Source of the DNA: Halomicronema hongdechloris C2206
Lineage (GTDB): Bacteria > Cyanobacteriota > Cyanobacteriia > Phormidesmidales > Phormidesmidaceae
NCBI RefSeq assembly: GCF_002075285.3
Contig: NZ_CP021983.2
Span: 1 to 32,000 of the forward strand
DNA: 32,000 nt
Reading direction: 5' to 3'
Positions 1 to 14,580 of this stretch are shown piece after piece. Each line of letters starts with the position of its first letter. Within the stretch, counting starts at the first letter, position 1. Position numbers and translations under genes: made by a program. Under the pieces are notes generated by a model, which saw only the letters and a list, made by a program, of their open reading frames with translations, did no database searches and was not told where the DNA came from.

Positions 1-428
1 GGGTAGGAGTCTGAGATAATCTCACCTAACTACCCGAGAGACCCACTACCGTCATTCCCGCGGCGGCGGGAATCCAGGGAACAAACCTCGGCTTTGGCTC
101 AGAGTACTCTGCCTGGATTCCGGGTCGCGCTGCGCTTGCCCGGAATGACGGGATTCGGTTTCGCGGTAAGTCTGCTACCTCGAGAGACGGTAGTGGTCTG
201 AGATCATCTCACCTAACTACCGTCTTTTCGGCCAGCAGAACTTTGTCGGGAATGTGGAGGACAATGGGGTGGGTGGTCATGGTGCAATTCACCTTTGCAG
301 ACACTTCTATTATCGCGGTGCGGGCATCAGGGACTTAAGGATTGAATAAGCTCTGATGCTTCAGAGATAGGTACGTTAGGCGAGAGCAAGCATCTGGAGG
401 CAGACAAATGGGGATGGGGCGATCGCAA
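1..428. repeat. Copy 1 of a 428-bp direct repeat (partner at 1522-1949)
   Basis: Positions 1-340 are base-for-base identical to 1522-1861 (offset 1521). Positions 341-428 align ungapped to 1862-1949 with about 11 mismatches, and similarity stops after GGGGCGATC. The repeat contains a MITE copy, the 5' fragment of the split UPF0175 gene, the upstream box and a relic start (ATGGGGATGGGGCGATCG versus ATGATGATGGGGCGATCT at the CHAT gene). Confidence 0.9.
3..221 (+). mobile_element. 219-bp MITE-like non-autonomous element, long form, copy 1
   Basis: Identical to 1524-1742. The window begins only 2 bp to its left, so the left flank cannot be seen. GTCTTTTCGG follows at 222-231, as in copy 2. Confidence 0.6.
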
Positions 429-476
429 CACGGGTTCATGACTCGACTAGGGCGATCATCGCTTTTGCATGCAAGG

Positions 477-1235
477 CTATGATTCTTTAGATAAATAGGG
501 CTGTAGCTCTGCGGCTAGCCAAGGCATCGGTGGTGCTTGTTCATAATCAATAAAGTAGTCATAGCCGAGCTGTTCGTAGAGTTCGCTCAACAAAGATTGC
601 ACATTCAATAAAACATCTTCATCTTCTGGCCCCAGAGGCAGGGGAACTGCCGGAATCACATCAGACACGTTGAAGGCGTATAAATCTGCCAGCGGCCGCT
701 GTGGGGCTCGGCTGACCAAGATGCGATAATGACTTTGAGCCACATCTGGTTCCATCAAAAACGGCTGCCCTGCCCGCAGCAAATCAATCTCAACTAAGTG
801 CGTTTGACTACCCAGAATCTGCTGTCGTTTGGCCATATATTTACTGCGACCCTCACCTCTTTTATTAGCTGGCGACAGTACCTCAAGCACGGTGACAACA
901 ATCTGGGTGGCTGCATCTTTCACTTCTAGGTAAGACTGCTGCATTTCCATCGGGACTGGCACTCTGACTTTAACGGGGTGCCCTGTTGCCTTGGGCGTCG
1001 TGGCAATTGGGGTAGGATTAGTCTGTCGTTGCTGAATGCTGACGTCAGGTCGACCCATCGCCACGGTAAGCGCGTCGGTAACGGTATAAACCCACTTATC
1101 GGTGACCACTCGATATTTGGGCAGCAGTTGAGGCACAAGACGCCGAGCGATCGCGGCCACCAGCTGGTTATGGAAGTCTGACCAGTAATCAGGCTGTTCC
1201 AGATACGGATTCATTCCTGGGAAAGGATTGGGCAT
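477..1235 (-). CDS. DUF4058 family protein (PD-(D/E)xK, restriction-endonuclease-like, relative of Uma2)
   Basis: 252-aa ORF. The N-terminus MPNPFPGMNPYLE..W.DFH and the LEVLSPANK (E-x-K type) motif are what I recognise as DUF4058. The family name is from memory and was not searched. Confidence 0.7.
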   Translation of the reverse strand: MPNPFPGMNPYLEQPDYWSDFHNQLVAAIARRLVPQLLPKYRVVTDKWVYTVTDALTVAMGRPDVSIQQRQTNPTPIATTPKATGHPVKVRVPVPMEMQQSYLEVKDAATQIVVTVLEVLSPANKRGEGRSKYMAKRQQILGSQTHLVEIDLLRAGQPFLMEPDVAQSHYRILVSRAPQRPLADLYAFNVSDVIPAVPLPLGPEDEDVLLNVQSLLSELYEQLGYDYFIDYEQAPPMPWLAAELQPYLSKES

Positions 1236-1320
1236 GAGGGGGAGGGCGATCTCGTATGTCTATGATACTGTTGCCCATTTAGCCCGTTGCAGTACCGTAG
1301 GCTGGGCCTTGGAAATGGCC

Positions 1321-1801
1321 TTAGGCAAGGGACTGCTCCAGGTCTTCGAGTTCTGCACTCAAGGGGCAGACGTGGTATCGCTCCAGGCTGAGCAAAAATT
1401 CAACCCGCGACATCCCAGCTAACTCTGCGGCCCGCCCAGAAGACAAGCGCCCCAGTTCGTACAGTTTGACCGCTGCCAGCATAGGCAGTTCGCGGGCAAA
1501 CCCTGCAGCGTCGGTCTTTTCGGGTAGGAGTCTGAGATAATCTCACCTAACTACCCGAGAGACCCACTACCGTCATTCCCGCGGCGGCGGGAATCCAGGG
1601 AACAAACCTCGGCTTTGGCTCAGAGTACTCTGCCTGGATTCCGGGTCGCGCTGCGCTTGCCCGGAATGACGGGATTCGGTTTCGCGGTAAGTCTGCTACC
1701 TCGAGAGACGGTAGTGGTCTGAGATCATCTCACCTAACTACCGTCTTTTCGGCCAGCAGAACTTTGTCGGGAATGTGGAGGACAATGGGGTGGGTGGTCA
1801 T
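1321..1801 (-). pseudogene. UPF0175 family antitoxin-like HTH gene interrupted by a MITE
   Basis: On the minus strand, ATG at 1801-1799 opens MTTHPIVLHIPDKVLLAEKT (1801-1743). The 219-bp insertion follows. The same frame then continues DAAGFARELPMLAAVKLYELGRLSSGRAAELAGMSRVEFLLSLERYHVCPLSAELEDLEQSLA, with stop TAA at 1323-1321. The joined 83-aa product has the LYE.G.LS.G.AAELAGMSR.EF signature typical of UPF0175. An internal ATG at 1482-1480 could still give a 53-aa C-terminal product. Confidence 0.75.
1524..1742 (+). mobile_element. 219-bp MITE-like non-autonomous element, long form, copy 2, with 10-bp target-site duplication
   Basis: The element is bounded by a perfect direct duplication GTCTTTTCGG (1514-1523 and 1743-1752), and removing it restores the UPF0175 frame. 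Both ends carry the palindromic core TGAGAT-N-ATCTCA followed by ACTACC, giving imperfect terminal inverted repeats (GTAG..TGAGATaATCTCA..ACTACC). Internal hairpins are ATTCCCGC-ggcg-GCGGGAAT and ATTCCGGG-N14-CCCGGAAT. It contains no ORF. Confidence 0.75.
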
Positions 1802-1862
1802 GGTGCAATTCACCTTTGCAGACACTTCTATTATCGCGGTGCGGGCATCAGGGACTTAAGGC

Positions 1863-1892
1863 TTGAATAAGTTCTGATGCTTCAGAGATAGG
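1863..1892 (+). promoter_or_regulatory. Conserved upstream box, copy upstream of CHAT gene 1
   Basis: tTGAATAAGTTctgatGctTCAGAgATAgg. The same ungapped pattern occurs at 6230-6259 and 9862-9891, with a diverged relic at 342-371. The box ends 38 nt before ATG 1929. TTGAAT looks like a -35 element, but the -10 assignment is ambiguous. Confidence 0.5.
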
Positions 1893-1928
1893 TACGTTAG
1901 GAGAAAGCAAATATCTGGAGGCAGAAAC

Positions 1929-4484
1929 ATGATGATGGGGCGATCTCAGGCAAGTGGAATGCTGGCAATGATGCTGGTCGTCATGGGTACAGAATTACCT
2001 GTAGCTGCAACCGCTTCGGAACCTGCCGCTCTCATCGCCCAAGAACCCGAACCAGACGCCACGGCCCCCCTGGAGCGAGCCGAAGCGCTTAACCAGCAGG
2101 TGATTGAACTCTACCAAGCGGGACGGTATCAAGAGGCCATTCCCCTGGCAGAAGAAGCCTTAGCCATTCGGCGCCAGCAATTAGGAGAGCGCCATCCCGA
2201 TGTGGCCGCCAGCCTCAACAACCTGGCAGCGCTGTATGAGGCCCAGGGGCGCTATGGCGAGGCCGAGCCCCTCTATCAAGAATCCCTAGCCATTCGGCGC
2301 CAGCAGTTAGGAGAACGCCATCCCGCTGTGGCCCAAAGCCTCAACAACCTGGCATTGCTATATGTTGCCCAGGGGCGCTATGGGGAAGCCGAACCCCTAT
2401 ATCAAGAATCCCTCGCCATTCGTCGCCAGCAGTTAGGGGAGCGCCATCCCGATGTCGCCAGCAGCCTCAACAACCTGGCAGGGCTATATGTTGACCAAGG
2501 GCGCTATGGCGACGCCGAGCCCCTCTATCAAGAATCCCTAGCCATTCTGCGCGAGCAGTTAGGGGAGCGCCATCCCGATGTGGCCGCCAGCCTCAACAAC
2601 CTGGCCGCGCTGTATTATGCCCAGGGGAAAACCGCTCAGGCGGTGCGCAGCTTCCAGGCAGGCTTGGCCATCGAAGAGTGGCACCTGGAGATCAACCTGA
2701 CGACGCTGACAGAGGCCCAACGCCAGGACTACGCCGCCACCCTCTTCGGCACTACGGATGCGGCTATTTCCCTGTCGCTGCAATCGGCAGAGGCGCCACC
2801 CCTGGGGCTGACCACGTTGCTGCGGCGCAAGGGTCGCCTGCTGGAGGCGGGCAGCAGCAGTCTGCAACGCCTGCGCCAGAACCTCACGCCTGAAGACCAG
2901 ACCCTGCTAGACAACCTCATTGATGTGCGTCAGCAACTGGCAGCCCTCACCTTCAATCCCCCGGAAAACCTGCCACCGGAGGAGTACCGATCGCAACTCG
3001 CTGCCCTGGAACAGCAGGACAGTGACCTATCTGCCACCCTGGCTCGTCGCAGTGCTGTATTTCGAGTAGAAGCCGAACCCGTAGAGATTGCCGCAGTACA
3101 GGCCCAGATCCCAGCCGATGGGGTGCTGGTGGAATATGCCCGCTATCACCCCTTTGATGCTAAAGCTAATCCAGCTAACCGCTGGGGTGACCCTCGCTAT
3201 GCGGCCTACCTCCTCTTCCCCAATGGCCGCATTGAAGCCATCGACCTGGGCGATGCCGCTGCCATTGACACTGCCGTGCAAGCCTTCACCACCCTGCTGC
3301 AAGACCCCCGCGCCGACCTACGGGGCGATCCCGCCACCATCATCACCGAGATTGACCCCGACCGGATTGAGACGGTGACCAGCACCCTGCAGGCCCTGGT
3401 GTTGGATCCGATTGCACCCTATTTAGAGGGCCGTGAGCATCTGCTGATCTCTCCCGACAGCCAGCTCAACCGCCTGCCCTTTGAGGCCCTGCAGACGGAC
3501 GATGGTCGTTATCTGGTGGAGCAGTATCAAATCAGCTATCTCAACAGCGGTCGTGACCTGCTCAAATTCGACGTCCTAGATCCCAGCACAGCGCCCGCTG
3601 TCATTCTTGCCAATCCTGATTATGAGCAAGCCGCCCCTCGACTCCGCTCGGGGCTCGACTCGGTAACTGGAAGCTCCCCGAGCGGAGTCGTTGGCGAAGC
3701 TGCTCCGAAGGAGCTAGAGAGCCGGGGCGAGCAGTCGTCGAGCGGAGTCGAGCGGTCGTCGAGCGGAGTCGAGACGAACCGCCGCTCCACCGACCTCAGC
3801 CAACTTCAGGTCGAACCGTTACCCGGCACCGCCGCCGAAGCCGGAGCCATCCAACCCCTACTCCCCAACGCCACCGTCCTCACCGAAGACCAGGCCACCG
3901 AAAACGTGCTCAAGACCGTGCAGGCTCCCCGCATTCTCCACATCGCCACCCACGGCTTCTTCTTAGAAGATCAACCCATTCCAGTCGCCGAGGAGAGTCG
4001 TGGCCTCAGCCTGGCCGCGGCTGACGGGCTGCGGGCACTGCCCCGCTTAACGGCCCCGGTGGAAAATCCCCTGCTGCGCTCGGGTCTGGCCCTGGCCGGA
4101 TTCAACGCCCGCAGCAGCGGTGACGAAGACGGGGTCTTTACGGCTCTGGAAGCCGCTAACCTCAACCTGTTTGGCACCCAGCTGGTCGTCCTCTCTGCCT
4201 GCGATACCGGCTTAGGGGACATTGCCAATGGCGAAGGGGTCTATGGTCTACGGCGGGCCTTTGCCATCGCCGGGGCCGAGACCCAGTTGATGAGCCTCTG
4301 GCAGGTGAGCGATACCGGCACCCAGAGTCTGATGGCGCGGTACTACGAAAAGCTGATGGCGGGTATGGGCCGCAGCGAAGCCCTGCGGGCGGTGCAGCTC
4401 GAGATGATCCGCGAAGGTGGACAGTATAGTCGGCCCTACTACTGGGCGGCCTTCATCCTGGCAGGAGACTGGCGGCCGCTTTAG
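1929..4484 (+). CDS. TPR-repeat CHAT domain protein (caspase-fold protease), probable signal peptide
   Basis: 851-aa ORF. GGAGG lies 7 nt upstream of the ATG. The N-terminus has a hydrophobic stretch, GMLAMMLVVMG..VAATA. Four 42-aa kinesin-light-chain-type TPR units follow (LAIRRQQLGERHPDVAASLNNLAALYEAQGRYGEAEPLYQES). The C-terminal CHAT domain has an intact His/Cys pair (HIATHGFF, VVLSACDTGLG) and the tail YYWAAFILAGDW. Confidence 0.9.
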   Translation: MMMGRSQASGMLAMMLVVMGTELPVAATASEPAALIAQEPEPDATAPLERAEALNQQVIELYQAGRYQEAIPLAEEALAIRRQQLGERHPDVAASLNNLAALYEAQGRYGEAEPLYQESLAIRRQQLGERHPAVAQSLNNLALLYVAQGRYGEAEPLYQESLAIRRQQLGERHPDVASSLNNLAGLYVDQGRYGDAEPLYQESLAILREQLGERHPDVAASLNNLAALYYAQGKTAQAVRSFQAGLAIEEWHLEINLTTLTEAQRQDYAATLFGTTDAAISLSLQSAEAPPLGLTTLLRRKGRLLEAGSSSLQRLRQNLTPEDQTLLDNLIDVRQQLAALTFNPPENLPPEEYRSQLAALEQQDSDLSATLARRSAVFRVEAEPVEIAAVQAQIPADGVLVEYARYHPFDAKANPANRWGDPRYAAYLLFPNGRIEAIDLGDAAAIDTAVQAFTTLLQDPRADLRGDPATIITEIDPDRIETVTSTLQALVLDPIAPYLEGREHLLISPDSQLNRLPFEALQTDDGRYLVEQYQISYLNSGRDLLKFDVLDPSTAPAVILANPDYEQAAPRLRSGLDSVTGSSPSGVVGEAAPKELESRGEQSSSGVERSSSGVETNRRSTDLSQLQVEPLPGTAAEAGAIQPLLPNATVLTEDQATENVLKTVQAPRILHIATHGFFLEDQPIPVAEESRGLSLAAADGLRALPRLTAPVENPLLRSGLALAGFNARSSGDEDGVFTALEAANLNLFGTQLVVLSACDTGLGDIANGEGVYGLRRAFAIAGAETQLMSLWQVSDTGTQSLMARYYEKLMAGMGRSEALRAVQLEMIREGGQYSRPYYWAAFILAGDWRPL
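3639..3775 (+). repeat. In-frame palindromic and tandem repeat block inside the CHAT gene 1 linker
   Basis: A perfect 15-bp inverted repeat, CGACTCCGCTCGGGG (3639-3653) / CCCCGAGCGGAGTCG (3676-3690). A small hairpin GCTCC-gaa-GGAGC. A 21-bp tandem duplication GTCGTCGAGCGGAGTCGAG(cg/ac) at 3734-3754 and 3755-3775. GAGCGGAGTCG occurs three times. The block encodes the low-complexity stretch SPSGVVGEAAPKELESRGEQSSSGVERSSSGVET. Confidence 0.7.
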
Positions 4485-4507
4485 GCCCGGTTAGACGATG
4501 GCTTTCA

Positions 4508-4593
4508 AAAATGACGGTAGTAGGTCTCTCGAGGTAGCAGACTCATCACGCAAACAATCCTGGTCATGCCGGGCAAGCGCCCACACCTCACCC
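4508..4593 (-). repeat. Short-form member of the same palindromic repeat family
   Basis: AATGACGGTAGTAGGTCTCTCGAGGTAGCAGACTCATCACGCAAACAATCCTGGTCATGCCGGGCAAGCGC is the reverse complement of the segment GCGCTTGCCCGGAATGACGGG..GTAAGTCTGCTACCTCGAGAGACGGTAGTGG found in the long-form element. It lies 24 bp after the CHAT gene 1 stop. Confidence 0.6.
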
Positions 4594-4640
4594 AGCAAGA
4601 AAATGCTGTAACAATGGAGATGTCGCTTTAGGGGCAGATC

Positions 4641-4964
4641 ATGTACCAAACCGATCCTCCTCGACCGGCCCAGGAAACGCTGCCGACAATGTACGATTTG
4701 CCCAGCGACAATCCAGAGGAGCCAGGGTTGCCGGACGTTGGCGTCAGCCCGTCGCGAGACGTATTTCACGACATGCAGCCCCAGCTGCTGAAAGAGACCT
4801 GCCGACTCCCTGATGAACTGGCGGACAATGTCTTCTGCGGTACCGATCTAAATCTGTACTATGACACTCACCATCCCCAGTGGTACAAGCGCCCCGATTG
4901 GTTTTTGGTGCTGGGAGTGCCTCGGGCAAAACAGCAGCGAGATCTGCGCCTCAGCTATGTCATA
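4641..4964 (+). pseudogene. Uma2 (DUF820) family endonuclease, 3'-truncated
   Basis: TLPTMYDLPSDNPEEPGLPD..FHDMQPQLL..GTDLNLYYD..HPQWYKRPDWFLVLGV..DLRLSYVI matches the conserved N-terminal half of cyanobacterial Uma2 proteins. The catalytic half (E-x-K region) is absent. Homology stops at 4964 and the frame then runs through tandem repeats to a stop at 5078. VGVSPSRDV looks like a small extra insertion relative to the usual PDEFHD. Confidence 0.7.
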
Positions 4965-4981
4965 AGACTATGGTGGCTGGG

Positions 4982-5075
4982 TTCGCGGGCGTGGAAGCTT
5001 TGTTCGCTACTCTGGAAGGTTCCTTCGCGGGTGTGGAGGCTTTGTTCGCCACTCTGGAAGCTTCCTTCGCCGCCA
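4982..5075 (+). repeat. 42-bp tandem repeat, about 2.2 copies
   Basis: TTCGCGGGCGTGGAAGCTTTGTTCGCTACTCTGGAAGGTTCC starts at 4982, 5024 and 5066 (the last copy is partial), with 4 mismatches between full copies. In one frame it reads FAGVEALFATLEGS, repeated. Confidence 0.85.
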
Positions 5076-5077
5076 TG

Positions 5078-5258
5078 AACCAAACCTCCATCAATGAAAA
5101 TCTCTAGTCGCATAGACAAAATACTTGGTCAGAGGCCACTAACCAAACCTCCATCAATGGAAACCTTTAGTCGCATAGATAAAATACTTGGTTAGAGGTC
5201 GCGAACCAAATCTCCATCAATGCAGACCTTTAGTCGCATAGATAAAATACTTGGTTAG
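5078..5258 (+). repeat. 63-bp tandem repeat, 3 copies
   Basis: AACCAAACCTCCATCAATGAAAATCTCTAGTCGCATAGACAAAATACTTGGT.. starts at 5078, 5141 and 5204. The whole unit is repeated, and only about 10 nt at the unit junctions vary. Each unit contains TAGA(T/C)AAAAT and is bracketed by AACCAA..TTGGTT. Confidence 0.85.
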
Positions 5259-5382
5259 GCAGCGCCAATGACCCCTGCAGCGACGGTGAAGCTTAGGATG
5301 GCAGGATGAACTAAGGGTCTGGCGCTGCTGGAAAAGGGATACGCTTCCTGTTGCTAAGGTAATCCGGTGACGAATCCTGGCA

Positions 5383-5991
5383 TCATGCCTTGAGGATCAG
5401 GTCATAGCGGTTGCACTCATGCACTCGGCTAAACCGTTGTTGAATTTCTGGAACAGATTCCCCACGATACTGAGCAAAGACATGAATGGGCCTCAAACCA
5501 GGAATGCGACTGCCAAGGCACCCATCCACTTCATCATCTTGCAGGTAGACGTGGAGATAGGTGTCTACTTTCTGAAAGCCCTGGGCTTCGTACCACCTTA
5601 GCGTTGAGGCATCGTCGCGGGTCCAGGCTTCGAAGCGTTGGATGTGGGACTGTTGGGCCATGGCAATGGCCACCTTCAACAGCGCTGTTCCAACCCCCCG
5701 TCGTCGATAGTCCGGATGAACCGCAATATTCCAGATCATCCCGGCTTTGCCCGTCGCGGTTGAATGTTTTGGGGGTGAGCAGACACTACCGGGTACCGTT
5801 TCACATTCGACATCGATGAGGCCAATGATGTGCTGGTCGAGTGTGGCAACCAGTTCAATTGATGGATTGGAGTAGTGTTCCTTCTGCCGCAGCACATTGT
5901 CGAAGTAGGCCGTGTCCAAGAAGGCCAGGACCCGGCAGCGCAGCCACTGGGGTTCATCAGCGGGTTGATAGCGGCAAATGCTCCAGTCCAT
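5383..5991 (-). CDS. GNAT family N-acetyltransferase
   Basis: 202-aa ORF with the acetyl-CoA binding motif IAVHPDYRRRGVGTALL and the downstream WYEAQGF, typical of GNAT. Confidence 0.85.
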   Translation of the reverse strand: MDWSICRYQPADEPQWLRCRVLAFLDTAYFDNVLRQKEHYSNPSIELVATLDQHIIGLIDVECETVPGSVCSPPKHSTATGKAGMIWNIAVHPDYRRRGVGTALLKVAIAMAQQSHIQRFEAWTRDDASTLRWYEAQGFQKVDTYLHVYLQDDEVDGCLGSRIPGLRPIHVFAQYRGESVPEIQQRFSRVHECNRYDLILKA

Positions 5992-6046
5992 AACGGTTCA
6001 GCGAAAATACACCTACCCTATTGCCTCACCCTGCCATGGACACTTT

Positions 6047-6115
6047 CCGCACGAAAAAGAGTTCCGTCATTCCGGGCAAGCACAGCGCGACCTGGAATCC
6101 AGTAGAGGGCTCTGC
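6047..6115 (-). repeat. Short or degenerate member of the palindromic repeat family
   Basis: CCGCACGAAAAAGAGTTCCGTCATTCCGGGCAAGCACAGCGCGACCTGGAATCCAGTAGAGGGCTCTG matches the reverse complement of the long-form right half and the copy at 9250-9310. Weaker similarity may continue to about 6180. Confidence 0.55.
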
Positions 6116-6229
6116 AGTCGATAGACATCTCTAAAGCCTCGCCGCGCAGAGAATGGCTGAAGTTCGGTGCATCACACCTCGCGGTGATAGCCCTCTACCC
6201 TCCTTATCTCTGCCAAAATTCATCCAATC

Positions 6230-6259
6230 TTGAATAAGTTTCCCCGGCTCAGACATATA
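6230..6259 (+). promoter_or_regulatory. Conserved upstream box, copy upstream of CHAT gene 2
   Basis: tTGAATAAGTTtccccGgcTCAGAcATAta. It ends 23 nt before ATG 6281 and 38 nt before the alternative ATG 6296. That 38-nt distance equals the one at CHAT gene 1. Confidence 0.5.
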
Positions 6260-6280
6260 GGCTGATGTAAACTCCCCAGG

Positions 6281-9154
6281 ATGGAGCAAGCTCCCATGCA
6301 CTACCCGGCCAAGCTACTGAGTTTAGTGGCTCTTACAACTTTGGCAATGACGACTGTCCAGTTACCAGCCTTTTCTCAAGAACCGAGAGATGCTTACCGT
6401 CTAGCGGCGACTGAGACAAAAACTGAGACGAACCAAGCCAACGAGCAAGGGACTTTACTGCTTGAGGTAGAAGGCATTTTAGAAGTAGGGGATAATACTC
6501 TTGAAAGCGGGAGATTGATTGATGGTCATCAATTTGAAGGGCAGGCTGATCAAATAATCACTATACGCCTTACTAGTGATGAGTTTGATCCGTTTCTCGC
6601 TGTTTTGGAGCCCAGCGGGCAAGTACTTGGTAGTCGAAATAACATAAGTGTATCTAATCTTAATGCTGCTTTGACTATCAGATTACCTAAAAGTGGCACA
6701 TACTTAGTCGGCGTAACTATAGGCTCAGATGACATAAGCGCACAAGGCCAATATCGACTGACTGTAGCTGAGGCAACTACAACGGAAATAAGCAAAGCAG
6801 AAGCTGAACGCTTACTTCAGCTTGGAATTGAGCAATATCAGACTGCTCGACTCCGAGAAGCTATACAGTCATGGGAACAAGCCCTCATTACTTATCGTGA
6901 GATTGACGATCGCCAAGGGGAAGCCGTCGTTCTGGGAAACTTGGGCGTTGCTTATCGTGATTTGGGTGACTATCAGCAGGCTATCAATCTCCATGAGCAA
7001 GCGCTTTTTATTTTCCGTGAAATTGGCAATCGCTTCGGAGAAGTTAGCTCCCTACTTAACTTAGGCGGCGATTACGAAAGCCTAGGCAACTATCAGCAAG
7101 CTATAAACCTACATGAGCAGAGTCTCACCATAGCCCGCGAAATCAATGATCGCGCTGGGGAGGGTAACTCTTTGCGCGGCTTGGGCGCTGCTTATCGTAA
7201 CTTAGGTCAATATCAGCAAGCTATCGAATTCTATGAGCAAAGTCTTGCCATTATCCGCGAAATTGGTGACCGCCTAGAAGAAACTCGCGCCCTATTAGGT
7301 TTGGGAGTTACTCACTATGATCTCGGTAACTATGAAAGGGCCATTGAATTCTATGAGCAAAGTCTTGCCATTATCCGCGAAATTGGTGATCGCCTAGAAG
7401 AAGCTCGCGTCCTCGGGAATTTGGGTAATGTTTCTAGGACCCTGGGTCAATATCGGCAAGCTATTGATCTCTATAAACAGCGTTTAACTATCGCGCGCGA
7501 AATTGGTGATCGGCCTGGTGAAGCCGCAGCTCTACTTGGTATGGGCAACACTTATAGTAAGCTAGGCAACTATGAACAGGCTATTGACCTCTACAGGCAA
7601 AGCCTTGCTATTACCCGCGAAATTGGCGATCGGCCTGGCGAAGCCATGTCTCTTCATAACCAGGGTTTGACCTTTATGAATACAGGCCAACTTCCCCAGG
7701 CAGAATCAGTGTTGCGTCAGTCCATAGAAGTCTTTGAATCCCTCCGCACAAACCTTCCCGATAACCAGCTCATCTCTATCGCCGATACCCAGGCAAGGGC
7801 ATACGCTAACCTAGAGCGTGCCTTAACTGCCCAAGACAAGACAGCTGAAGCCCTTGCCATTACTGAGCGAGGCCGGGCTCGTGCATTTGTGTTGCAGCTG
7901 GCCAGTCGCCTAGCCACTCCAGAAGAGCAGGCGGCCCTGGCCGATAGCCCTATTGCTGAGGCTCCTACCGTCGCTGAGATCCAACAGATCGCCCGCAACA
8001 CCAACACCACTCTGGTCACCTACTCCCTCATCTTCGACCAGGCCCTCTATATTTGGGTGGTGCAGCCGTCGGGGGAGATTCAATTTCGCTCGGTCGAGTT
8101 CAATGGCGCTGGCGGTTCTGGGGTGGTGGTCAATCCCATTGCCGCCATTGATGGCCCGGTCTATCGAGGCACTGACGACCCGTCCGAGTTAGATAGCCTG
8201 GTGGCTGACTCCAGGGCTGGCATTATTGTCGAGCGCACGGGAACCAATCCAGCCCAACTGCAGGAGCTGCATCGGGTCTTGATCGAGCCCATTGCCGCTC
8301 TATTGCCCACCGATCCAGAAGAGAAAGTAGCCTTCATTCCCCAGGGCAACTTGTTTTTGGTGCCCTTTGCCACCCTACAAGACGACGACGGCACGGCCCT
8401 GATCGAAAAACACACTATTCTGACTGCTCCGTCGATTCAGGTCTTCGGCTTGGCCAATGACGTCAGTGGGGAGCCAACAGATGTCAGTAGCTCCCTAAGC
8501 GCCAGCGGCGATGGCGCCCTGATTGTGGGGAATCCAGTGATGCCGACAGTGTGGGCCCCTACGGCCAGCGGTGACTTTGGCGAAATTCAACTGGCGGACT
8601 TGCCAGGGGCTAAACGAGAGGCGGAAGCCGTGGGCGATGTCTTTGGGGTGCCAGTGCTGACAGGCAATCAGGCCACTGAGGCCACCGTAAAGCAACGGTT
8701 GCCAGCAGCCCAGCTGATTCATCTGGCTACCCACGGTCTACTGGAATATGGCGACCCCCAATCCTCTGGGGTTCTGGACGTGCCCGGTGCCGTGGCCTTA
8801 ACGCCCGGGTCAGGGGAAGACGGCTTGCTCACCGCTGCCGAAATCCTGGAAATGAAGTTGCAGGCGGAGTTGGCAGTGCTCAGTGCTTGCGACACCGGGC
8901 GCGGACGCATCACTGGCGATGGCGTGGTGGGGCTGTCTCGGGCCTTGATCACTGCCGGCGTCCCCAGTGTGATTGTGTCCCTGTGGGCGGTGCCCGATGC
9001 CCCTACGGCCATGCTAATGACGGAGTTTTACCGCCAGCTAGACCAAGGGCACGACAAGGCTCAGGCCCTACGGCAGGCCATGTTGATCACCCGGGAGCAG
9101 CATCCTAATCCCAGGGCTTGGGCCGCCTTTAGCCTCATGGGGGCTGCGAATTGA
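6281..9154 (+). CDS. PPC-domain / TPR-repeat / CHAT domain protein (caspase-fold protease), probable signal peptide
   Basis: 957-aa ORF. An alternative start at ATG 6296 has GGAG 9 nt upstream. The signal-like stretch is KLLSLVALTTLAMTTVQLPAFS. A pre-peptidase C-terminal-like beta domain follows (GDNTLESGRLIDGHQFEGQADQIITIRL..DPFLAVLEPSG..GTYLVGV..GQYRLTV). About ten 40-aa TPR units follow (GNLGVAYRDLGDYQQAINLHEQALFIFREIGNRFGE). The C-terminal CHAT domain has HLATHGLL and AVLSACDTGRG. Confidence 0.9.
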   Translation: MEQAPMHYPAKLLSLVALTTLAMTTVQLPAFSQEPRDAYRLAATETKTETNQANEQGTLLLEVEGILEVGDNTLESGRLIDGHQFEGQADQIITIRLTSDEFDPFLAVLEPSGQVLGSRNNISVSNLNAALTIRLPKSGTYLVGVTIGSDDISAQGQYRLTVAEATTTEISKAEAERLLQLGIEQYQTARLREAIQSWEQALITYREIDDRQGEAVVLGNLGVAYRDLGDYQQAINLHEQALFIFREIGNRFGEVSSLLNLGGDYESLGNYQQAINLHEQSLTIAREINDRAGEGNSLRGLGAAYRNLGQYQQAIEFYEQSLAIIREIGDRLEETRALLGLGVTHYDLGNYERAIEFYEQSLAIIREIGDRLEEARVLGNLGNVSRTLGQYRQAIDLYKQRLTIAREIGDRPGEAAALLGMGNTYSKLGNYEQAIDLYRQSLAITREIGDRPGEAMSLHNQGLTFMNTGQLPQAESVLRQSIEVFESLRTNLPDNQLISIADTQARAYANLERALTAQDKTAEALAITERGRARAFVLQLASRLATPEEQAALADSPIAEAPTVAEIQQIARNTNTTLVTYSLIFDQALYIWVVQPSGEIQFRSVEFNGAGGSGVVVNPIAAIDGPVYRGTDDPSELDSLVADSRAGIIVERTGTNPAQLQELHRVLIEPIAALLPTDPEEKVAFIPQGNLFLVPFATLQDDDGTALIEKHTILTAPSIQVFGLANDVSGEPTDVSSSLSASGDGALIVGNPVMPTVWAPTASGDFGEIQLADLPGAKREAEAVGDVFGVPVLTGNQATEATVKQRLPAAQLIHLATHGLLEYGDPQSSGVLDVPGAVALTPGSGEDGLLTAAEILEMKLQAELAVLSACDTGRGRITGDGVVGLSRALITAGVPSVIVSLWAVPDAPTAMLMTEFYRQLDQGHDKAQALRQAMLITREQHPNPRAWAAFSLMGAAN

Positions 9155-9184
9155 AGAGCGCTTTGTAAGCAGCCGATATGGTCT

Positions 9185-9310
9185 CCCTGGATTCCTGCTG
9201 CCGCGGGAATGACAGTAGTACGTTTATTGCGAGCAGCAGACTAATCGCGAAAAAGAATTTTGTCATTCTGGGCAAGCGCAGCACCACCCAGCCTCCAGTA
9301 GAGGGCTCTG
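9185..9310 (-). repeat. Short-form member of the palindromic repeat family
   Basis: CCCTGGATTCCTGCTGCCGCGGGAATGACAGTAGTA..GCAGCAGACTAATCGCGAAAAAGAATTTTGTCATTCTGGGCAAGCGCAGC..CCAGTAGAGGGCTCTGG. It has the same module order as the 4508 copy. The degenerate CTGAGATATAGG and CTGAGATCAC motifs at 9371-9412 may belong to it. It starts 31 bp after the CHAT gene 2 stop. Confidence 0.6.
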
Positions 9311-9861
9311 GGGCCAGTAGCAAGCTGGCAACCAGCCAGCTCAATCGGCCTCGGGTGAATAGGTTCGACCTGCTGAGATATAGGAACCTTTAGAGCACAC
9401 AACCTCTGAGATCACAGCCTACTGTCACCTATCGATAGTGGCCATGGCCTAGGTCCATCCAGCCTACAGGGTGATCCATCTATGAACTCCCATCAGGTCA
9501 GGAATCATGCCCCCATTTAATCAGGTGCCCTACCTCCGTCAACTGTTGAGAAGAATCGCAGCGGCTTCAGGGTTACTGGTATCAGCAGACGGCGTCCCCT
9601 GACTCCCTTGCGGTGCAGGTGCCCAATGGGTCGTCAGTCGGAGGGTTAGGAGTGCTGGGCCTATGGTTTCTGGGGCAACGGCTGCTGCAGGCTGGCGTCT
9701 CAGAACACTGAATCTTAGACCTTGGCTAAACCTTTTAAGAAGTAAGAGTCAAAGCAGGTACCGGGGACGGCTTCACTGTAATATCGCGTTTGTCAGGTAG
9801 CTTCTCCGGTTTTAGGGCATTGGACGCTACGTTCTGTCGTTTTTTCCACCAGAGTGCAAGA

Positions 9862-9891
9862 GTGAATAAGTTCATCGGCCTCAGAGATATA
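9862..9891 (+). promoter_or_regulatory. Conserved upstream box, copy upstream of the YbjN-like gene
   Basis: gTGAATAAGTTcatcgGccTCAGAgATAta. It ends 36 nt before ATG 9926. Confidence 0.5.
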
Positions 9892-9925
9892 CCCCTATGA
9901 CGTTACCCGACATCTTCTAAACATC

Positions 9926-10468
9926 ATGAAAAAAACAATCCCCAGCTTACTTGCCCTGACCACTGCCACCGTTGGCCTGGTCCTATGGCAACCCCACCTG
10001 GTCCCGGTCTCTGTGGCTCAGGTCACCCCCCAGCAAGACAGTTCCCAGGGTAGTCCCGACCCGAGAGTGCAAGCTGCCCTCGATGGTCTGGGCTTCAACT
10101 ACGAAATTCAAGATAGCGGCGCCTTTAGAATCGGGCTGCGCTTCGAAGACGGACGCACCCAGGTAGCCTTTATTAGCTCTGGCACTAGCACCCTGGGCGA
10201 TTTGGAAATCCGAGATATTACCTCGCCAGTTAACGTTACCGATGGTCCTCTATCGGCCGAGACGGCTAACCAGCTGTTACAGGATAATGCCAGCAAAAAG
10301 TTAGGGGCCTGGCAGACGGTTGAACTCAGCGATCAACGCCATCTCACCATGTTTACTGCCCGCATCGATGCCAATAGCAGCCCCGAGCAACTACAGTCTG
10401 CTCTCTATGGGGTGCTCTACACTGCCGATGCCATGGAAGCCGAGCTCTCCGACAGCGATCGCTTCTAG
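9926..10468 (+). CDS. Secreted YbjN-like (type III secretion chaperone-fold) protein
   Basis: 180-aa ORF. The signal peptide is MKKTIPSLLALTTATVGLVLW..VSVA-QV. The body, LDGLGFNYEIQDSGAFRIGLRFEDGRTQVAFI..LLQDNASKKLGAWQ..ADAMEAELSDSDRF, resembles the YbjN family pattern, including the C-terminal D.F. The family call is from memory. Confidence 0.55.
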   Translation: MKKTIPSLLALTTATVGLVLWQPHLVPVSVAQVTPQQDSSQGSPDPRVQAALDGLGFNYEIQDSGAFRIGLRFEDGRTQVAFISSGTSTLGDLEIRDITSPVNVTDGPLSAETANQLLQDNASKKLGAWQTVELSDQRHLTMFTARIDANSSPEQLQSALYGVLYTADAMEAELSDSDRF

Positions 10469-10591
10469 GGTACGGTGCCGTGAGCGGTTTCGCCTGAGCA
10501 CCCTGAACAGGGGCATCTACTGAATGCCCTAAACCGTTATCTCCTAGTATTTGTGTCTAATCTACGAACATCCTGACGAGGATAATCCCCC

Positions 10592-12898
10592 ATGAAACGT
10601 CGTCATTTCCTTCAATTCGCCGGGTCTACCCTGGCCGCCATCGGCCTCAGCCAAGCCGATTTTCTCCGCCAAGCCAATCACTACGGCAAGGCCCTGGCCC
10701 AGAACACCAACCGCAAATTAGCCCTGCTGATCGGCATTAATAACTATCCCGACCCCACCATTAGCAACCTCAATGGCTGCCTCAACGATGTGGAGATGCA
10801 GTATCAGTTGCTGGTGCACCGCTTTGGCTTTAAGCCCAGCGACATTCTTGTAGTGAGTGACACGGCTGATATGCAACCTAGCCGGGCCAATATTCTCCAG
10901 GCCTTTGAGGAGCATTTGATCCAGCGAGCTAGACCAGGGGATGTGGTGGTGGTGCACTATTCCGGCCATGGAGGGCGGGTGGTAGACCCGGATCCGATTG
11001 TGGTGCAAGCCTGCCCCCAATACAACCGGGAGCTTGAAGCGGAAGTCGGTCTCAACGGCACCCTGGTGCCCAATGACCCCATGGCTGCCAACCAATCAGG
11101 CCGGGAGTTGGTGGTGCCCGACATCATGGGGCGCAGCTTGTTTTTGCTGATGGAGCGCATCAACACCGATAACCTGACGGTGGTACTAGATAGCTGCTAT
11201 TCAGGGGCCGGCACCCGCGGCAATGCCCGGGTGCGAGCGGTGGACTCCCGTCTCAGTCGCAGCGCCGACACCCTGGTGGCCAGCGAGGATGAATTTGACA
11301 ACCAAGAACGCTGGTTAAAAAAACTGAACTTAAGCGAGACCGAATTCCATCAGCAGCGGGCTCGGGGCATTGCCAGGGGCGTCACCCTGGGTTCGGCCAG
11401 TTGCAACCAATTGGCCTTCGAGATGCCCTTTAGCGACCAGTTCACGTCTGGGACCTTTACTTATCTGTTGACCAGTTACCTATGGCAATCTCCTGCAACC
11501 CAGGTGGCGGAAACGGTGCAGGCCAACCTGGTGCGCAGCACCCGCACCACGGTCACCAGTGGCACCCAGATTCCGGTCTTTGAGTATGAACCGGGTAGCA
11601 ACTATGGCCAGAAACCTCTGTATTTCTCTTCGATCGCAACTCCCTTCGCCGCTGGGGTGGTGACCAATGTGACGGGGGAGCAGCTTCAGGTCTGGTTGGG
11701 AGGCGTCTCCCATGCCAATTTAGATCGGGCGGCGGCGGGGAGTATCTATACCCTGATTGACGGGGATGGCCATCCCCTGGCAGATATGGTGCTAGAGCAA
11801 CGGCAGGGGCTTCTGGGCTTTGGCAAACTGGCTGCGGGTCAGTCAATCTCTGTGATTGCAGGGATGTTGGTGCGGGAGAAGGTGCTAGCCATTCCTGACC
11901 CGGTGCTCAGGGTGGGTATTGATGCGTCCTTAGCCGATGAAGCCGAGCCAGCTCAGGCAGCTCTGGAGTCGGCCCTGGTCACGGCGATTGCGTCGGGGGA
12001 GACCACTAGTCGCATCGTCGTAGCACCAGTGGGTGAACCGATGGAGTATTTGCTGGCTCGTACCACTGAGACCATTCAGGCAGAACTGCGGCAGACGGGA
12101 GTAGAGACTCCGCCTCCCTTGGGCACGGTGGCTCTATTCGCACCGGATTTCTCCGCCGTGGTGCCCAATACCTTCGACCGGGTGGATGAGCCAGTGACCG
12201 TGGCGGTGACACGGTTACGCCCGCGCTTGAAATCTCTATTAGTGGGTAAAGTACTGAAGGACCTGGCCGTGACTACCTCAGATCTGCGGGTCAGTGGTGA
12301 GGCCTTTGATGCCAGTGGCCGTGGGGTGGCCGTACCGATTGTGCACCAGGGGGCCACGGGCCGTGCTGATACCCGGGTGGCCACCCAGGCGTTTCGCACC
12401 AATGAGGAGATTAAGATTCGGGTTCGGAATCAGGAAAATGATCCGGTCTATCTGAGTGTGTTGGGCATCGGCAGCGATGGCCAGATTGTGGTGCTGCAAC
12501 CGGCTAACTGGAATGACCCGGTAGAGGCGGCTCGGGTGGATGAAGATGAGGAACTGGTAGTCCCTACTGCTGAGGATGGGGTGCGATTCCGAGTGGCCGG
12601 GACAGGTTACATCGAGCTGATTACTTTGGTGAGTCGGGCCCCCTTGCGAGGGTTATTGCAGAGTCTGCAAACGATTTCTCGGGGGGCCGGCCGCGATCGC
12701 GGCTTTGTCGGTCTGGAAGAGGGGGATCCCTTAGATGTGGTCAGGGGATTGTTGGGGGATGTGGATGCAATTTCACGCTCTCGCAATACCACTAGCATTT
12801 TGGTGGAAGCCACTGAGGATAAGTCAGTGGTGGATTCTGATGCGATCGCAACGTTTTCCACCGTCATCGAGATCGTCGCCGACCCCAATGGCCCATGA
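10592..12898 (+). CDS. Orthocaspase/metacaspase-like peptidase C14 with Tat signal and C-terminal DUF4384
   Basis: 768-aa ORF. The twin-arginine motif is MKRRHFLQFAGSTLAAIGLSQA. The caspase p20-like core is KLALLIGINNY..LNGCLNDV..VVHYSGHGG (His)..VVLDSCYSGAG (Cys). The C-terminal segment EEIKIRVRNQENDPVYLSVLGIGSDGQIVVLQP..GYIELITLVS fits DUF4384. Confidence 0.9.
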   Translation: MKRRHFLQFAGSTLAAIGLSQADFLRQANHYGKALAQNTNRKLALLIGINNYPDPTISNLNGCLNDVEMQYQLLVHRFGFKPSDILVVSDTADMQPSRANILQAFEEHLIQRARPGDVVVVHYSGHGGRVVDPDPIVVQACPQYNRELEAEVGLNGTLVPNDPMAANQSGRELVVPDIMGRSLFLLMERINTDNLTVVLDSCYSGAGTRGNARVRAVDSRLSRSADTLVASEDEFDNQERWLKKLNLSETEFHQQRARGIARGVTLGSASCNQLAFEMPFSDQFTSGTFTYLLTSYLWQSPATQVAETVQANLVRSTRTTVTSGTQIPVFEYEPGSNYGQKPLYFSSIATPFAAGVVTNVTGEQLQVWLGGVSHANLDRAAAGSIYTLIDGDGHPLADMVLEQRQGLLGFGKLAAGQSISVIAGMLVREKVLAIPDPVLRVGIDASLADEAEPAQAALESALVTAIASGETTSRIVVAPVGEPMEYLLARTTETIQAELRQTGVETPPPLGTVALFAPDFSAVVPNTFDRVDEPVTVAVTRLRPRLKSLLVGKVLKDLAVTTSDLRVSGEAFDASGRGVAVPIVHQGATGRADTRVATQAFRTNEEIKIRVRNQENDPVYLSVLGIGSDGQIVVLQPANWNDPVEAARVDEDEELVVPTAEDGVRFRVAGTGYIELITLVSRAPLRGLLQSLQTISRGAGRDRGFVGLEEGDPLDVVRGLLGDVDAISRSRNTTSILVEATEDKSVVDSDAIATFSTVIEIVADPNGP

Positions 12899-13032
12899 AG
12901 GCCATCGCTTAGGAGCAGGCCCTTGCATCTCAGGCGCTGACCAGACTGATTCCATCTCTCGACAGTCATCCTTCATCCCCGAGACTGCCTATGATGATTG
13001 AGGAGGTAAATCATGGGAAATAGGGCATAGCT

Positions 13033-13992
13033 TTGGGCATGTTGGTCAATGGCGAGTGGGTTAAGCATCGAGAGCAGGCCGATACTAAAGGCCACTTCGT
13101 TCGCCCCTCGACCACCTTTCGCAATTGGGTCACCGCGGATGGCTCCAGTGGTTTCCAGGCTGCAGCCGGACGCTATCACCTCTATATCTCCTGGGCCTGT
13201 CCTTGGGCCCACCGCACTGCCATTACCCGAGCCCTGCAAGGTCTGGAGTCAGCCATCGGCCTATCTGTGGTCGATCCAGTCATGGGGGATGAGGGCTGGG
13301 CATTTTCTGAGTATCCCGGTTCAATTCCCGATGCCTTGCACGGCGCCCAGTACCTGCGGCAGATTTACCTCAAGGCCGATCCCAACTTTACCGGACGGGT
13401 CACAGTGCCGGTACTGTGGGATCGGCAAACCCACACCATCGTGAATAATGAATCCCGCGAGATCATGCGGATGCTGAATCGCGAATTTAGAGCTCTGAGC
13501 CCATCACCACAGCAGCTCTGCCCCTCAGATTTACAAGCCACCATTGACGACACCATCGACGCCATTTACCAACCGATCAACAACGGCGTTTATCGGGCCG
13601 GGTTTGCCGTCAAGCAAGCTGCCTATGATGAGGCCGTCGTAGCCCTCTTCCAAGCCCTCGATCACTGGGAACAGGTCTTAGCGCGACAACGATATCTGTG
13701 TGGGCCTCAGTTTACCGAGGCAGACATCTGCATGGTTACGACGCTGCTGCGCTTCGATGCCATCTATTACAGTCATTTCAAGTGCAACCTGCGCCGCATT
13801 AACGACTACCCCAATCTGGGCAATTACCTACGGGATGTCTATCAAATCCCTGGTGTCCGCCAGACCTGCTATCTAGACCACATTAAGCTGCACTATTACC
13901 GTAGCCATCCCACCGTCAATCCCAGCGGCATTGTCCCCAAAGGTCCCCTGCTGGACTTCGAAGCGGCCCACGATCGCCATCGCTTTGGCTAA
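13033..13992 (+). CDS. yqjG: Glutathionyl-hydroquinone reductase (Xi-class glutathione S-transferase, YqjG/ECM4 family)
   Basis: 319 aa, collinear with E. coli YqjG as I remember it: MG.L..G.W, FRNW.TADG, RYHLY.S.ACPWAHRT (the CPWA active site), GRVTVPVLWD, NNGVY.AGFA, THFKC, INP.GI.P.GP. Confidence 0.93.
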   Translation: MGMLVNGEWVKHREQADTKGHFVRPSTTFRNWVTADGSSGFQAAAGRYHLYISWACPWAHRTAITRALQGLESAIGLSVVDPVMGDEGWAFSEYPGSIPDALHGAQYLRQIYLKADPNFTGRVTVPVLWDRQTHTIVNNESREIMRMLNREFRALSPSPQQLCPSDLQATIDDTIDAIYQPINNGVYRAGFAVKQAAYDEAVVALFQALDHWEQVLARQRYLCGPQFTEADICMVTTLLRFDAIYYSHFKCNLRRINDYPNLGNYLRDVYQIPGVRQTCYLDHIKLHYYRSHPTVNPSGIVPKGPLLDFEAAHDRHRFG

Positions 13993-14343
13993 TCGCGAGG
14001 CACTGAAGACGCCCCATAGTCGCCACAACTCTAGGGGTTGGAAGGACTGATCCACTAACACCAGCCGCATTTGCTCGAGCTATTCGTGGGGTGTTGTCGA
14101 TTCAATCAAGCGATTCGGCTCTCATGGTGATCTGAGACAGTTCCGTAGTCATACTCAGGTCACAGGCAAGGGTTAAGCGTAACTCTAGGCTTAGGAATGA
14201 TCGCTTATCTTCCTAAGGTGCATAGGCTGCGATCGCACAGAAATATAATCTATCGACATTCTGAGGCGGACGCTCCTCTCAACAGATACCAAGACGTGAG
14301 CGCTCCCCACTGGAGAAACCGATCCACCCAGGAGATCCCCCCC

Positions 14344-14580
14344 ATGGCCACTTCCCTTGCCAACATCAAAATTAGCCGCTTGCTTCTTGCCATTGCAGTG
14401 ACCGTGGCAGTCGCCGACGCCTGTCCTCACCCCTCCCTAGGCCCGAGCTTACTCAGCCAAGCTTTCCAACGGGTACAACAGGTCATGACAGGGCGCTCCC
14501 AAGAAACACGTTCCCTAGTGACAGAGCAGCTGAGCGCTCCCAACCAAGCACAACTACCGCGTCAGCTAGACCTTTTCTAA
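14344..14580 (+). CDS. Hypothetical small protein with N-terminal hydrophobic segment
   Basis: The internal ATG of ORF 14197-14580 is preceded by GGAGA 9 nt upstream. The 78-aa product starts MATSLANIKISRLLLAIAVTVAVADA. I recognise no family. Confidence 0.35.
   Translation: MATSLANIKISRLLLAIAVTVAVADACPHPSLGPSLLSQAFQRVQQVMTGRSQETRSLVTEQLSAPNQAQLPRQLDLF

Follow-up and report, generated by a model that had tools for sequence, protein, structure and literature searches.

Why should genes of unrelated families carry the same short element just upstream of their start codons? The question is raised by a 32-kb stretch of the genome of Halomicronema hongdechloris C2206 (here called the window, meaning the whole of the DNA analysed), in which a first-pass annotation had aligned three copies of a 'box' lying before two genes for proteases with tetratricopeptide repeats and a CHAT domain (TPR-CHAT genes 1 and 2, or CHAT1 and CHAT2) and before a YbjN-like gene that is followed by an orthocaspase gene. 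The box had been taken to be a discrete and directional element, separate from the local miniature inverted-repeat transposable elements (MITEs), and to imply dedicated control, a view strengthened by the presence of the same box elsewhere before orthocaspase, TPR-CHAT, YbjN-like, trypsin-like, TpsA and CHAT-CHASE2 genes. From the motif and its statistics, the orientation and position of its copies, their conservation and the set of genes that they precede, we infer a promoter role, a register, a start site and a type of reading factor: the box would serve these genes in common as their core promoter and be recognized by a sigma factor other than the housekeeping one, a reading to which we give a probability of about one half. 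The corresponding regulon would consist of the TPR-CHAT, orthocaspase (here by way of the YbjN-like gene) and trypsin-like proteases, the CHAT-CHASE2 sensor proteases, a TpsA/TpsB pair and a few unknown proteins.

Copies of the box in the window

A pattern scan of the window gave exact matches to TGAATAAGTTNNNNNGNNTCAGASATA at 1864-1890, 6231-6257 and 9863-9889. The broader form of the pattern is TGAATAAGTT-N8-TCAGA-N-ATA, and the narrower form TGAATAAGTT-N5-G-N2-TCAGA-S-ATA is also exact in all three copies; the three-copy alignment first reported, with 19 of 27 positions invariant, was reproduced in both its coordinates and its count. A further stretch (343-369) matches the box pattern with one mismatch, and 100 dinucleotide-preserving shuffles of the window gave no match with three or fewer mismatches. 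A box model (R1), built from the sequence of 26 copies alone, matches the window at exactly five sites, all on the plus strand. Three of these are the exact copies: 1863-1892 (tTGAATAAGTTCTGATGCTTCAGAGATAgg; E=8e-6), 38 nt before TPR-CHAT gene 1 (ATG 1929); 6230-6259 (E=4e-6), 38 nt before TPR-CHAT gene 2 (ATG 6296); and 9862-9891 (E=7e-6), 36 nt before the YbjN-like gene (ATG 9926). When re-measured, the three distances from box end to ATG were as originally given, that for CHAT2 depending on the choice of ATG 6296, a choice upheld by the starts of CHAT2 homologues (MHFSTKLL, MRYSAKLF and MRYAAKWF).

The remaining two sites are degenerate. The first (342-371; E=5e-5), in which AAGTT has become AAGCT, is separated by 38 nt from a relic start codon downstream of it (408). 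It had been listed as a fourth, diverged copy and is indeed a real match in front of a relic start, but it cannot be counted as independent because it lies inside a duplicated segment (1 to ~425, matching 1522 to ~1946). The second (9355-9384, TGAATAGGTTCGACCTGCTGAGATATA; E=4e-4) is an orphaned copy in which TCAGA is mutated to TGAGA; it had been overlooked, which made the original tally incomplete. As the model finds only these five sites, the earlier observation that no box precedes the housekeeping genes, or directly precedes the orthocaspase gene, holds for the window. On the proposed mechanism the box would drive CHAT1, CHAT2 and a YbjN-like/orthocaspase operon, and the two degenerate copies would be relics. 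One other candidate, a box-like site with four mismatches at 14219-14245, was dropped on finding that the box model gave no match there at E≤5. It lies ~98 nt 5′ of the gene for a conserved 78-aa exported protein (14344-14580) with a signal-like N-terminus, for which the listed open reading frame (ORF, 14197-14580) is probably overlong at its 5′ end.

The genes downstream of the intact copies are all on the plus strand. TPR-CHAT gene 1 (1929-4484) encodes a protein with matches to Pfam CHAT (1e-85) and TPR and a signal-like N-terminal segment; TPR-CHAT gene 2 (Pfam CHAT, 2.5e-69, and TPR) is listed as an ORF of 6281-9154 and is revised here to 6296-9154, starting at ATG 6296. The YbjN-like gene (9926-10468) encodes an exported 180-aa protein 100% identical to H. 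hongdechloris XM38_000070, which is named YbjN domain protein in UniRef; its Pfam YbjN score of 16.3 bits is under the 22-bit cut-off, and a homologue (P0006) reaches 24.6 bits. The orthocaspase gene (10592-12898), whose product is 100% identical to XM38_000080, has Peptidase_C14 and DUF4384 domains and a twin-arginine translocation (Tat)-like N-terminus (MKRRHFLQFAGS...), and is the one gene of this set with no box of its own. PADLOC returned generic TPR and caspase domain matches only.

Recurrence of the box in other cyanobacteria

The broader pattern was scanned for exact matches in a one-genome-per-species collection (596 Gb) and in the JGI metagenome collection, giving 32 and 52 stretches respectively. 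Most of these lie in AT-rich non-cyanobacterial DNA, often within genes, and resemble chance matches; in 430 kb around the AT-rich non-cyanobacterial matches, near-matches were no commoner than in a reversed-sequence control. Two loci that are cyanobacterial by title (L001 and L002) were set aside as chance-like, and seven matches are cyanobacterial, by record title or gene content, and not chance-like. In 249 kb of cyanobacterial loci there were 29 sites (9, 6, 10 and 4 with zero, one, two and three mismatches) and in the reversed-sequence control none in any of these classes. A chance origin of the box is ruled out by the shuffles, by the reversed control and by the lack of any excess of near-matches around the AT-rich matches. 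Positions left free by the pattern are also constrained in the cyanobacterial copies, position 11 being a pyrimidine and ATA being followed by G/T and next by A/G; it should be noted that information-content values are inflated, as the copies were gathered by similarity to the pattern.

In six of the seven cyanobacterial loci the box (in L023 by way of a second copy) lies upstream of an orthocaspase, TPR or TPR-CHAT, YbjN-like, trypsin-like or TpsA gene. In Thainema sp. (L025) an orthocaspase lies 63 nt downstream and in Leptolyngbya sp. PCC 6406 (L032) the gene for TpsA, with a two-partner secretion (TPS) domain, lies 52 nt downstream and is followed by that for a TpsB of the ShlB/FhaC type. 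The metagenome-assembled genome (MAG) SRP332253_co2_75 contributes two loci, with a YbjN-like orthologue 37 nt (L022) and a trypsin-like protease 40 nt (L013) downstream, and a metagenome contig (L070) has a CHAT1 orthologue 36 nt downstream. In L023, from MAG P01_F01_bin.150, the second copy (4676), whose spacer is 1 nt shorter, precedes the gene for a long TPR protein. The exact box of this locus has no gene of its own: it lies in 1697-1880 with only a tandem pair of ~75-nt hairpin repeats (gatcccggggttcttcaaaagcg...) and a convergently oriented gene after it, and it may be either an orphan or the promoter of a non-coding transcript.

Ten further loci were fetched solely through homology to the YbjN-like protein or the orthocaspase and were scanned both by mismatch count and with the box model. 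A box was found before the orthocaspase gene or its co-oriented front gene in seven of the ten (L085/L086, L090, L091, L092, L094, L096 and L097). In the six of these that had been fetched by the orthocaspase (L090, L091, L092, L094, L096 and L097), the model gave 11 matches with E<0.01, every one of them between genes and pointing in the same direction as the gene downstream; ten precede a gene of the set described here and one precedes a Ser/Thr kinase-receptor gene. The box lies 241 nt before the orthocaspase in Leptolyngbya sp. PCC 6406 (L090) and 120 nt before it in a Leptolyngbyaceae MAG (L096), whereas in Leptolyngbya sp. BL0902 (L091) it precedes a trypsin gene immediately 5′ of the orthocaspase. 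Kaiparowitsia implicata (L092) has boxes before a PPC-domain gene, a TPR-CHAT gene and a trypsin/orthocaspase pair. In MAG P01_F01_bin.150 (L094) and Romeria aff. gracilis (L097) two boxes stand back to back between an orthocaspase gene and a divergent CHAT-CHASE2 gene, each gene having its own box, and it is L097 that carries the additional box before the kinase-receptor gene. The close relatives of the window (L085-L088, ~88% protein identity) have boxes before CHAT1, CHAT2, YbjN-like and 313-aa exported-protein genes. Neither scan gave a box in L089 (a metagenome contig), L093 (L. ohadii) or L095 (Leptothoe); the fetched DNA of L093 and L095 ends at the first gene of the co-oriented cluster, which makes these two loci uninformative rather than negative. 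A site with four mismatches in L094 (21535) was rejected as it was not recovered by the model. The hosts of the box belong to the Nodosilineales, Leptolyngbyales and Oculatellales (NCBI taxonomy) and are thin filamentous cyanobacteria.

Three side observations concern the gene set. The box of the kinase-receptor gene (L097 19655-19682, minus strand; E=6e-4) lies 95 nt before a gene whose product joins a Ser/Thr protein kinase to a periplasmic binding-protein domain and which may be a signalling component of the regulon. A module of a CHAT-CHASE2 membrane protein and an exported, Cys-containing protein of ~230 aa recurs with the box genes (L085 1-1166, L089 1436-7378, L090 12377-18102, L092 1-2247, L094 7045-9726 and L097 6940-9342), with a DUF1822 protein and a domain-less protein of ~455 aa in addition in L089 and L090 only. 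These neighbours were rejected as candidate regulators, the ~230-aa protein being exported, Cys-containing and no DNA binder, and the ~455-aa and DUF1822 proteins having no informative domain. Finally, the trypsin-like genes share an extra stretch (c/tATGAAAcAcT/ATGAAATAAT) some 10-20 nt before the box (L013 640-670, L092 8805-8834 and L091 8780-8808), which is not present at other box genes.

Architecture and conservation

Taken together, the copies define an asymmetric, bipartite element of ~29 bp: TGAATAAGTY, seven or eight free bases, and TCAGA-n-ATA-K-R. Every copy is co-oriented with its gene. Of the 25 cases measured, 12 have 36-38 nt between the box end and the ATG, and the remainder range from 22 to 241 nt. 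The downstream genes are mutually non-homologous (C14, CHAT, trypsin, TPS, YbjN-like, PPC and CHAT-CHASE2), so the shared box is not explained by common gene descent; nearly all of their products have signal-peptide-like N-terminal segments. An oriented motif upstream of functionally related but non-homologous genes, conserved across genomes, is the sequence part of a regulon signature, of which co-expression of the genes would be the other part.

Each intact copy in the window has orthologous counterparts: the CHAT1 box in L085 and L070, where the DNA upstream of it is unrelated; the CHAT2 box before CHAT2-like genes in L086, L022 and L025; and the YbjN-like box before YbjN-like genes in L085/L086 and L022. 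When the window is compared with a relative (~88% protein identity), the CHAT1 region is alignable from the box exactly, ungapped identity rising from 27% over the 60 nt upstream to 93% in the box, with 82% over the leader. The YbjN-like region is alignable from 4 nt before the box (25%, 85% and 89% for the same three intervals), and the CHAT2 region from 28 nt before it. The flanks of paralogous box copies are unrelated, and no conservation upstream of the box was found across the copies. To judge from these alignments, the box marks the 5′ edge of a conserved unit and selection acts on the box itself. As a leader element would need its own promoter, and with it conservation further upstream, this position at the 5′ edge favours a promoter over an element of the leader.

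The box is also not the cargo of a MITE. Three of the window copies have MITE remnants in their vicinity, but the distances from box to remnant vary; in L086-L088 the boxes are present with no MITE core, in L085 the MITE copies are situated elsewhere, and in other genera the box occurs without the MITE of this genome. The variable distances and the MITE-free boxes of the relatives rule out carriage, in agreement with the first-pass annotation, which had kept the box apart from the MITE family.

Co-transcription of the orthocaspase gene

The orthocaspase gene has no box directly before it, and it had been suggested that it might be co-transcribed with the YbjN-like gene from the 9862 box. In the interval between the two genes (10469-10591) the box model found no box and a terminator scan found no terminator-like site. 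Elsewhere the box stands either directly before the orthocaspase (L025, L090, L094, L096 and L097) or before the single co-oriented gene that precedes it, this being a YbjN-like gene in L085/L086 and a trypsin-like gene in L091 and L092. Because boxes in other genomes precede the orthocaspase or its front gene, and because neither a box nor a terminator interrupts 10469-10591, the suggestion is supported, though short of proof, and the 9862 box is the probable promoter of a YbjN-like/orthocaspase unit.

Comparison with known promoter classes

On the proposed reading the box would be recognized by holoenzyme carrying an alternative sigma factor, possibly helped by a dedicated activator. The box would span the promoter from −35 to −10, and transcription would start ~8-10 nt past it, giving 5′ leaders of ~27-30 nt. 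There is a weak enrichment of T then G 9-10 nt past the box (a count inflated by orthologous copies), which would fit a pyrimidine-purine start site in this −35/−10 reading. The strict orientation, the clustering of distances to the ATG, the one copy with a spacer 1 nt shorter and the lack of a canonical TAnnnT at constant offset downstream would also suit a promoter.

A generic sigma-70 promoter was rejected: a consensus scan for the housekeeping sigma-70 factor (SigA) called no box, the criterion being a −35 region close to TTGACA and a −10 region close to TATAAT (A at −11, T at −7) at a spacing of 16-18 bp, and the original remark that the conservation goes beyond that of a generic promoter is in keeping with this result. 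The accompanying proposal that TTGAAT is a −35 element fails at its first base, which is not conserved, TGAAT being preceded by T, G or C and by T in only 9 of 27 copies.

Among the cyanobacterial alternatives, SigF promoters of Synechocystis PCC 6803 have TAGGC at −32, GGTAA at −12 and an AG-rich region (PMC2532724). The box has no TAGGC ~20 nt before TAAGTT and has AATAA in place of GGTAA; it also lacks the AG-rich context and has a second conserved block where SigF promoters have none. There are likenesses, as the SigF promoters (pilA1, sigF and sll0837; PMC2532724) are also non-canonical and serve genes for surface or periplasmic proteins, and the −15 to −7 stretch of pilA1, GGGTAAGTT (inferred from the purine tracts given in PMC2532724), agrees with GAATAAGTT of the box at seven of nine bases, TAAGTT being common to both. 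The J-Box read by SigJ in Nostoc punctiforme, GGGaAtacT, is one extended −10 block (PMC6495340). Like the box it is short, directional, conserved across cyanobacterial lineages, placed close upstream of many related genes and found by upstream alignment, but it is a single block that serves hormogonium and motility genes (PMC6495340), whereas the box is bipartite (TGAATAAGTY-N7/8-TCAGAnATA) and precedes exported proteases. Neither a GGG triplet nor AtacT is present in the 26-copy alignment.

The box alignment also shows neither AAC nor CGT, and no sigma or anti-sigma gene was found in the fetched loci. These are the signatures of promoters read by extracytoplasmic function (ECF) sigma factors, which have AAC in the −35 region and a CGT- or TC-type −10 region ~16-17 bp away and are usually autoregulated, with an anti-sigma gene adjacent; ECF groups differ widely in promoter motif. 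A classification of ECF factors is given in PMC7826278. ECF promoters resemble the box in being bipartite, with strongly conserved −35 and −10 blocks and little tolerance, and in serving small dedicated regulons of exported or envelope proteins; they differ from it in their AAC and CGT elements, and no sigma/anti-sigma pair adjoins any box in the loci examined. Parts of the box also resemble what we take to be the promoters of two Bacillus factors, sigma-G (TGAATA as −35, ~17-18 bp from a CATA-type −10) and sigma-H (GAAT as −10 core), a likeness that we treat as a lead only. Both are Firmicute sporulation sigma factors, and we know of no function for cyanobacterial orthologues.

Several points weigh against a promoter of the kind proposed. 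In the −35/−10 register the putative −10 region reads n-A-T-A-K-R, with A or G where T is expected at −7, and TTGACA is poorly matched; indeed the box matches no sigma-factor consensus among those compared. TAAGTT in the first half is a TAnnnT hexamer (box positions 5-10, in 15 of 23 non-redundant copies) and could itself be a −10 region, in which case the second half would lie past the start. The first half is evenly conserved over 9-10 bp, a pattern commoner in protein operators than in −35 hexamers. In the ~285 kb examined, no box proved to have a gene for a sigma factor or DNA-binding regulator as its neighbour. It should also be noted that the start site of every copy is a prediction, and that the count of copies in H. 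hongdechloris covers the 32-kb window.

Alternative explanations

The TAAGTT hexamer gives rise to the first alternative, in which TGA-A-TAAGTT would be an extended −10 region in the style of cyanobacterial group 3 sigma factors, with no −35 region; transcription would start inside the spacer, and TCAGA-n-ATA, at about +2 to +12, would act as a repressor operator or as a conserved mRNA 5′ end. Besides the frequency of TAnnnT, this register is favoured by the agreement with the SigF-dependent pilA1 promoter, by the lack of conservation upstream of the box, as would be expected of a promoter without a −35 region, and by a spacer poor in A. Against this, the profile is opposite to that of an ordinary −10 region: A7, G8 and T9, in the middle, hardly vary, and position 10, which should supply the T at −7, has C in 8 of 27 copies. 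There is no conserved purine at the predicted start (positions 16-19), and the GG of GGTAA and the TAGGC element at −32 are both missing. We regard the shifted register as unlikely.

It is equally doubtful that the box is the site of a dedicated transcription factor, whether activator or repressor, overlapping a weak promoter of housekeeping type, and not a sigma recognition sequence. Such a site would account well for conservation that is long and even (9-10 bp per half) and includes the would-be promoter spacer, and for the poor fit to the sigma-70, SigF and SigJ consensus sequences. Most bacterial regulators, however, bind as dimers to symmetric sites, and the two halves, TGAATAAGT and TCAGAnATA, agree at only three of nine positions either as direct repeats or as reverse complements. 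The strict orientation and the distance to the ATG also speak against it, as do the absence of a separate canonical TAnnnT at constant offset downstream of the box copies and the tolerance of a spacer 1 nt shorter in one copy.

A role in the 5′ leader RNA, as the site of a translational regulator or small RNA or as a processing signal, had been among the options first offered, together with a site for a dedicated regulator or sigma factor; the latter part of that proposal is favoured here, and the former we consider very improbable. Its attractions are the clustering of start-codon distances at 36-38 nt and a possible pairing in the CHAT1 leaders (window 1880-1920, L085 2925-2965 and L070), in which the ribosome-binding region, UCUGGAGG, could base-pair with YCAGAG of the box. 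A T-to-C change in the relative's box strengthens this pairing, which would be relevant only if the box is transcribed, but other box genes do not have it. In addition, distances of 22-241 nt occur too. As folding gave a mean z-score of 0.08, showing no excess folding energy, the alignment yielded no consensus structure and no Rfam family matched at E≤1 in positions 1-13000 of the window, the box was rejected as an RNA element. A leader element would also need a promoter upstream, yet conservation begins at the box, and close relatives share no related DNA 5′ of the boxes of CHAT1 and the YbjN-like gene.

Finally, the notion that the copies are alike only through gene duplication or carriage by a MITE or other mobile element, with no regulatory role, could appeal to the paralogy of CHAT1 and CHAT2, to the segmental origin of the 343 copy and to the MITE remnants near three window copies, but it is already contradicted by the non-homologous downstream genes, by the MITE-free boxes of L086-L088 with the MITE copies of L085 elsewhere, and by retention of the box across three orders with randomised flanks, and we attach almost no weight to it.

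Relic copies, duplication and MITEs

The 342 copy lies in positions 1-425, a segmental duplicate of 1522-1946 that takes in a MITE, the 5′ fragment of a UPF0175 gene and the box, together with the leader and opening codons of CHAT1. Identity between 1-300 and 1522-1821 is 100% (repeat family D3), and similarity extends to ~425/1946. The duplicate is a mosaic, with one mismatch over its first ~341 nt and ~12% divergence from the box onward, and the relic leader and start (ATGGGGATGGGG) are closer to the relative's CHAT1 than to the window's own. To go by the sequence, this mosaic pattern suggests either that the upstream part has undergone gene conversion or that two events took place at different times.

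The 9355 copy stands before the remnant of a gene for a 313-aa exported protein of unassigned family (9507-9717, plus strand, MPPFNQVPYLRQLLRR...), which has lost ~727 bp internally. In a blastn comparison of the window with L085, 9248-9588 matches 8570-8911 and 9585-13989 matches 9639-14057; the missing DNA corresponds to L085 8912-9638, and the gene is intact in the close relatives L085-L088. The orthologue of the 9355 box (L085 8679) lies 124 nt 5′ of the intact gene. The changes in the two relic boxes (TGAGA at 9355 and AAGCT at 343) each strike a position conserved in at least 85% of copies and would fit relaxed constraint, yet one copy that appears to be active (L086) also has TGAGA.

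The CHAT2 gene and its box (~6115-9170) are bracketed by MITE copies at 6039-6114 and 9171-9310. L085 is without the whole CHAT2 cassette and has a single MITE remnant at the corresponding place (L085 8570-8644), and L086 has CHAT2. This looks like gain or loss of the cassette through recombination between MITEs.

Other genes near the box

Three other genes near the box copies were assigned by Pfam, all on the minus strand: DUF4058 (477-1235), UPF0175 (1321-1530) and a GNAT acetyltransferase (5383-5991). The UPF0175 gene, which is antitoxin-like and adjoins the DUF4058 gene, is split by a MITE insertion (1513-1740) into 1321-1530 and 1741-1801. An ORF at 4641-5078 (within 4614-5260) has no Pfam match; a Uma2-family gene of the relative (L085 6659-7402) aligns with it over the 5′ part of that gene, after which the ORF continues into 42/21-nt and 63-nt tandem repeats at 4967-5260. 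It is probably a disrupted gene.

Implications

Links have been drawn between bacterial caspase-like proteases and cell death or self/non-self interactions, and to our knowledge the control and joint role of cyanobacterial orthocaspases and CHAT proteases are largely unexplored. Full-text literature searches gave no description of the box motif and nothing usable on promoter motifs for CHAT or orthocaspase genes or on the sigma-G consensus. It is possible, and we put this forward tentatively, that the box is recognized by a dedicated sigma factor or regulator, as yet undescribed, that would switch on an exported protease arsenal (orthocaspase, TPR-CHAT, trypsin-like, CHAT-CHASE2 and two-partner secretion) as one unit, and that CHAT-CHASE2, itself preceded by a box, may feed back as a signal input. 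For the window itself the box supports reading the YbjN-like and orthocaspase genes as an operon and has led to a corrected start codon for CHAT2. More widely, a cis-element conserved across three orders yields a computable list of genes that may be under common control, tying the orthocaspase to TPR-CHAT, trypsin-like, CHAT-CHASE2 and two-partner-secretion genes, and the box could be used as bait for its regulator and as a reporter for the conditions that activate the proteases. If the proposal is right, the box would be the first transcriptional handle on the bacterial caspase-like proteases.

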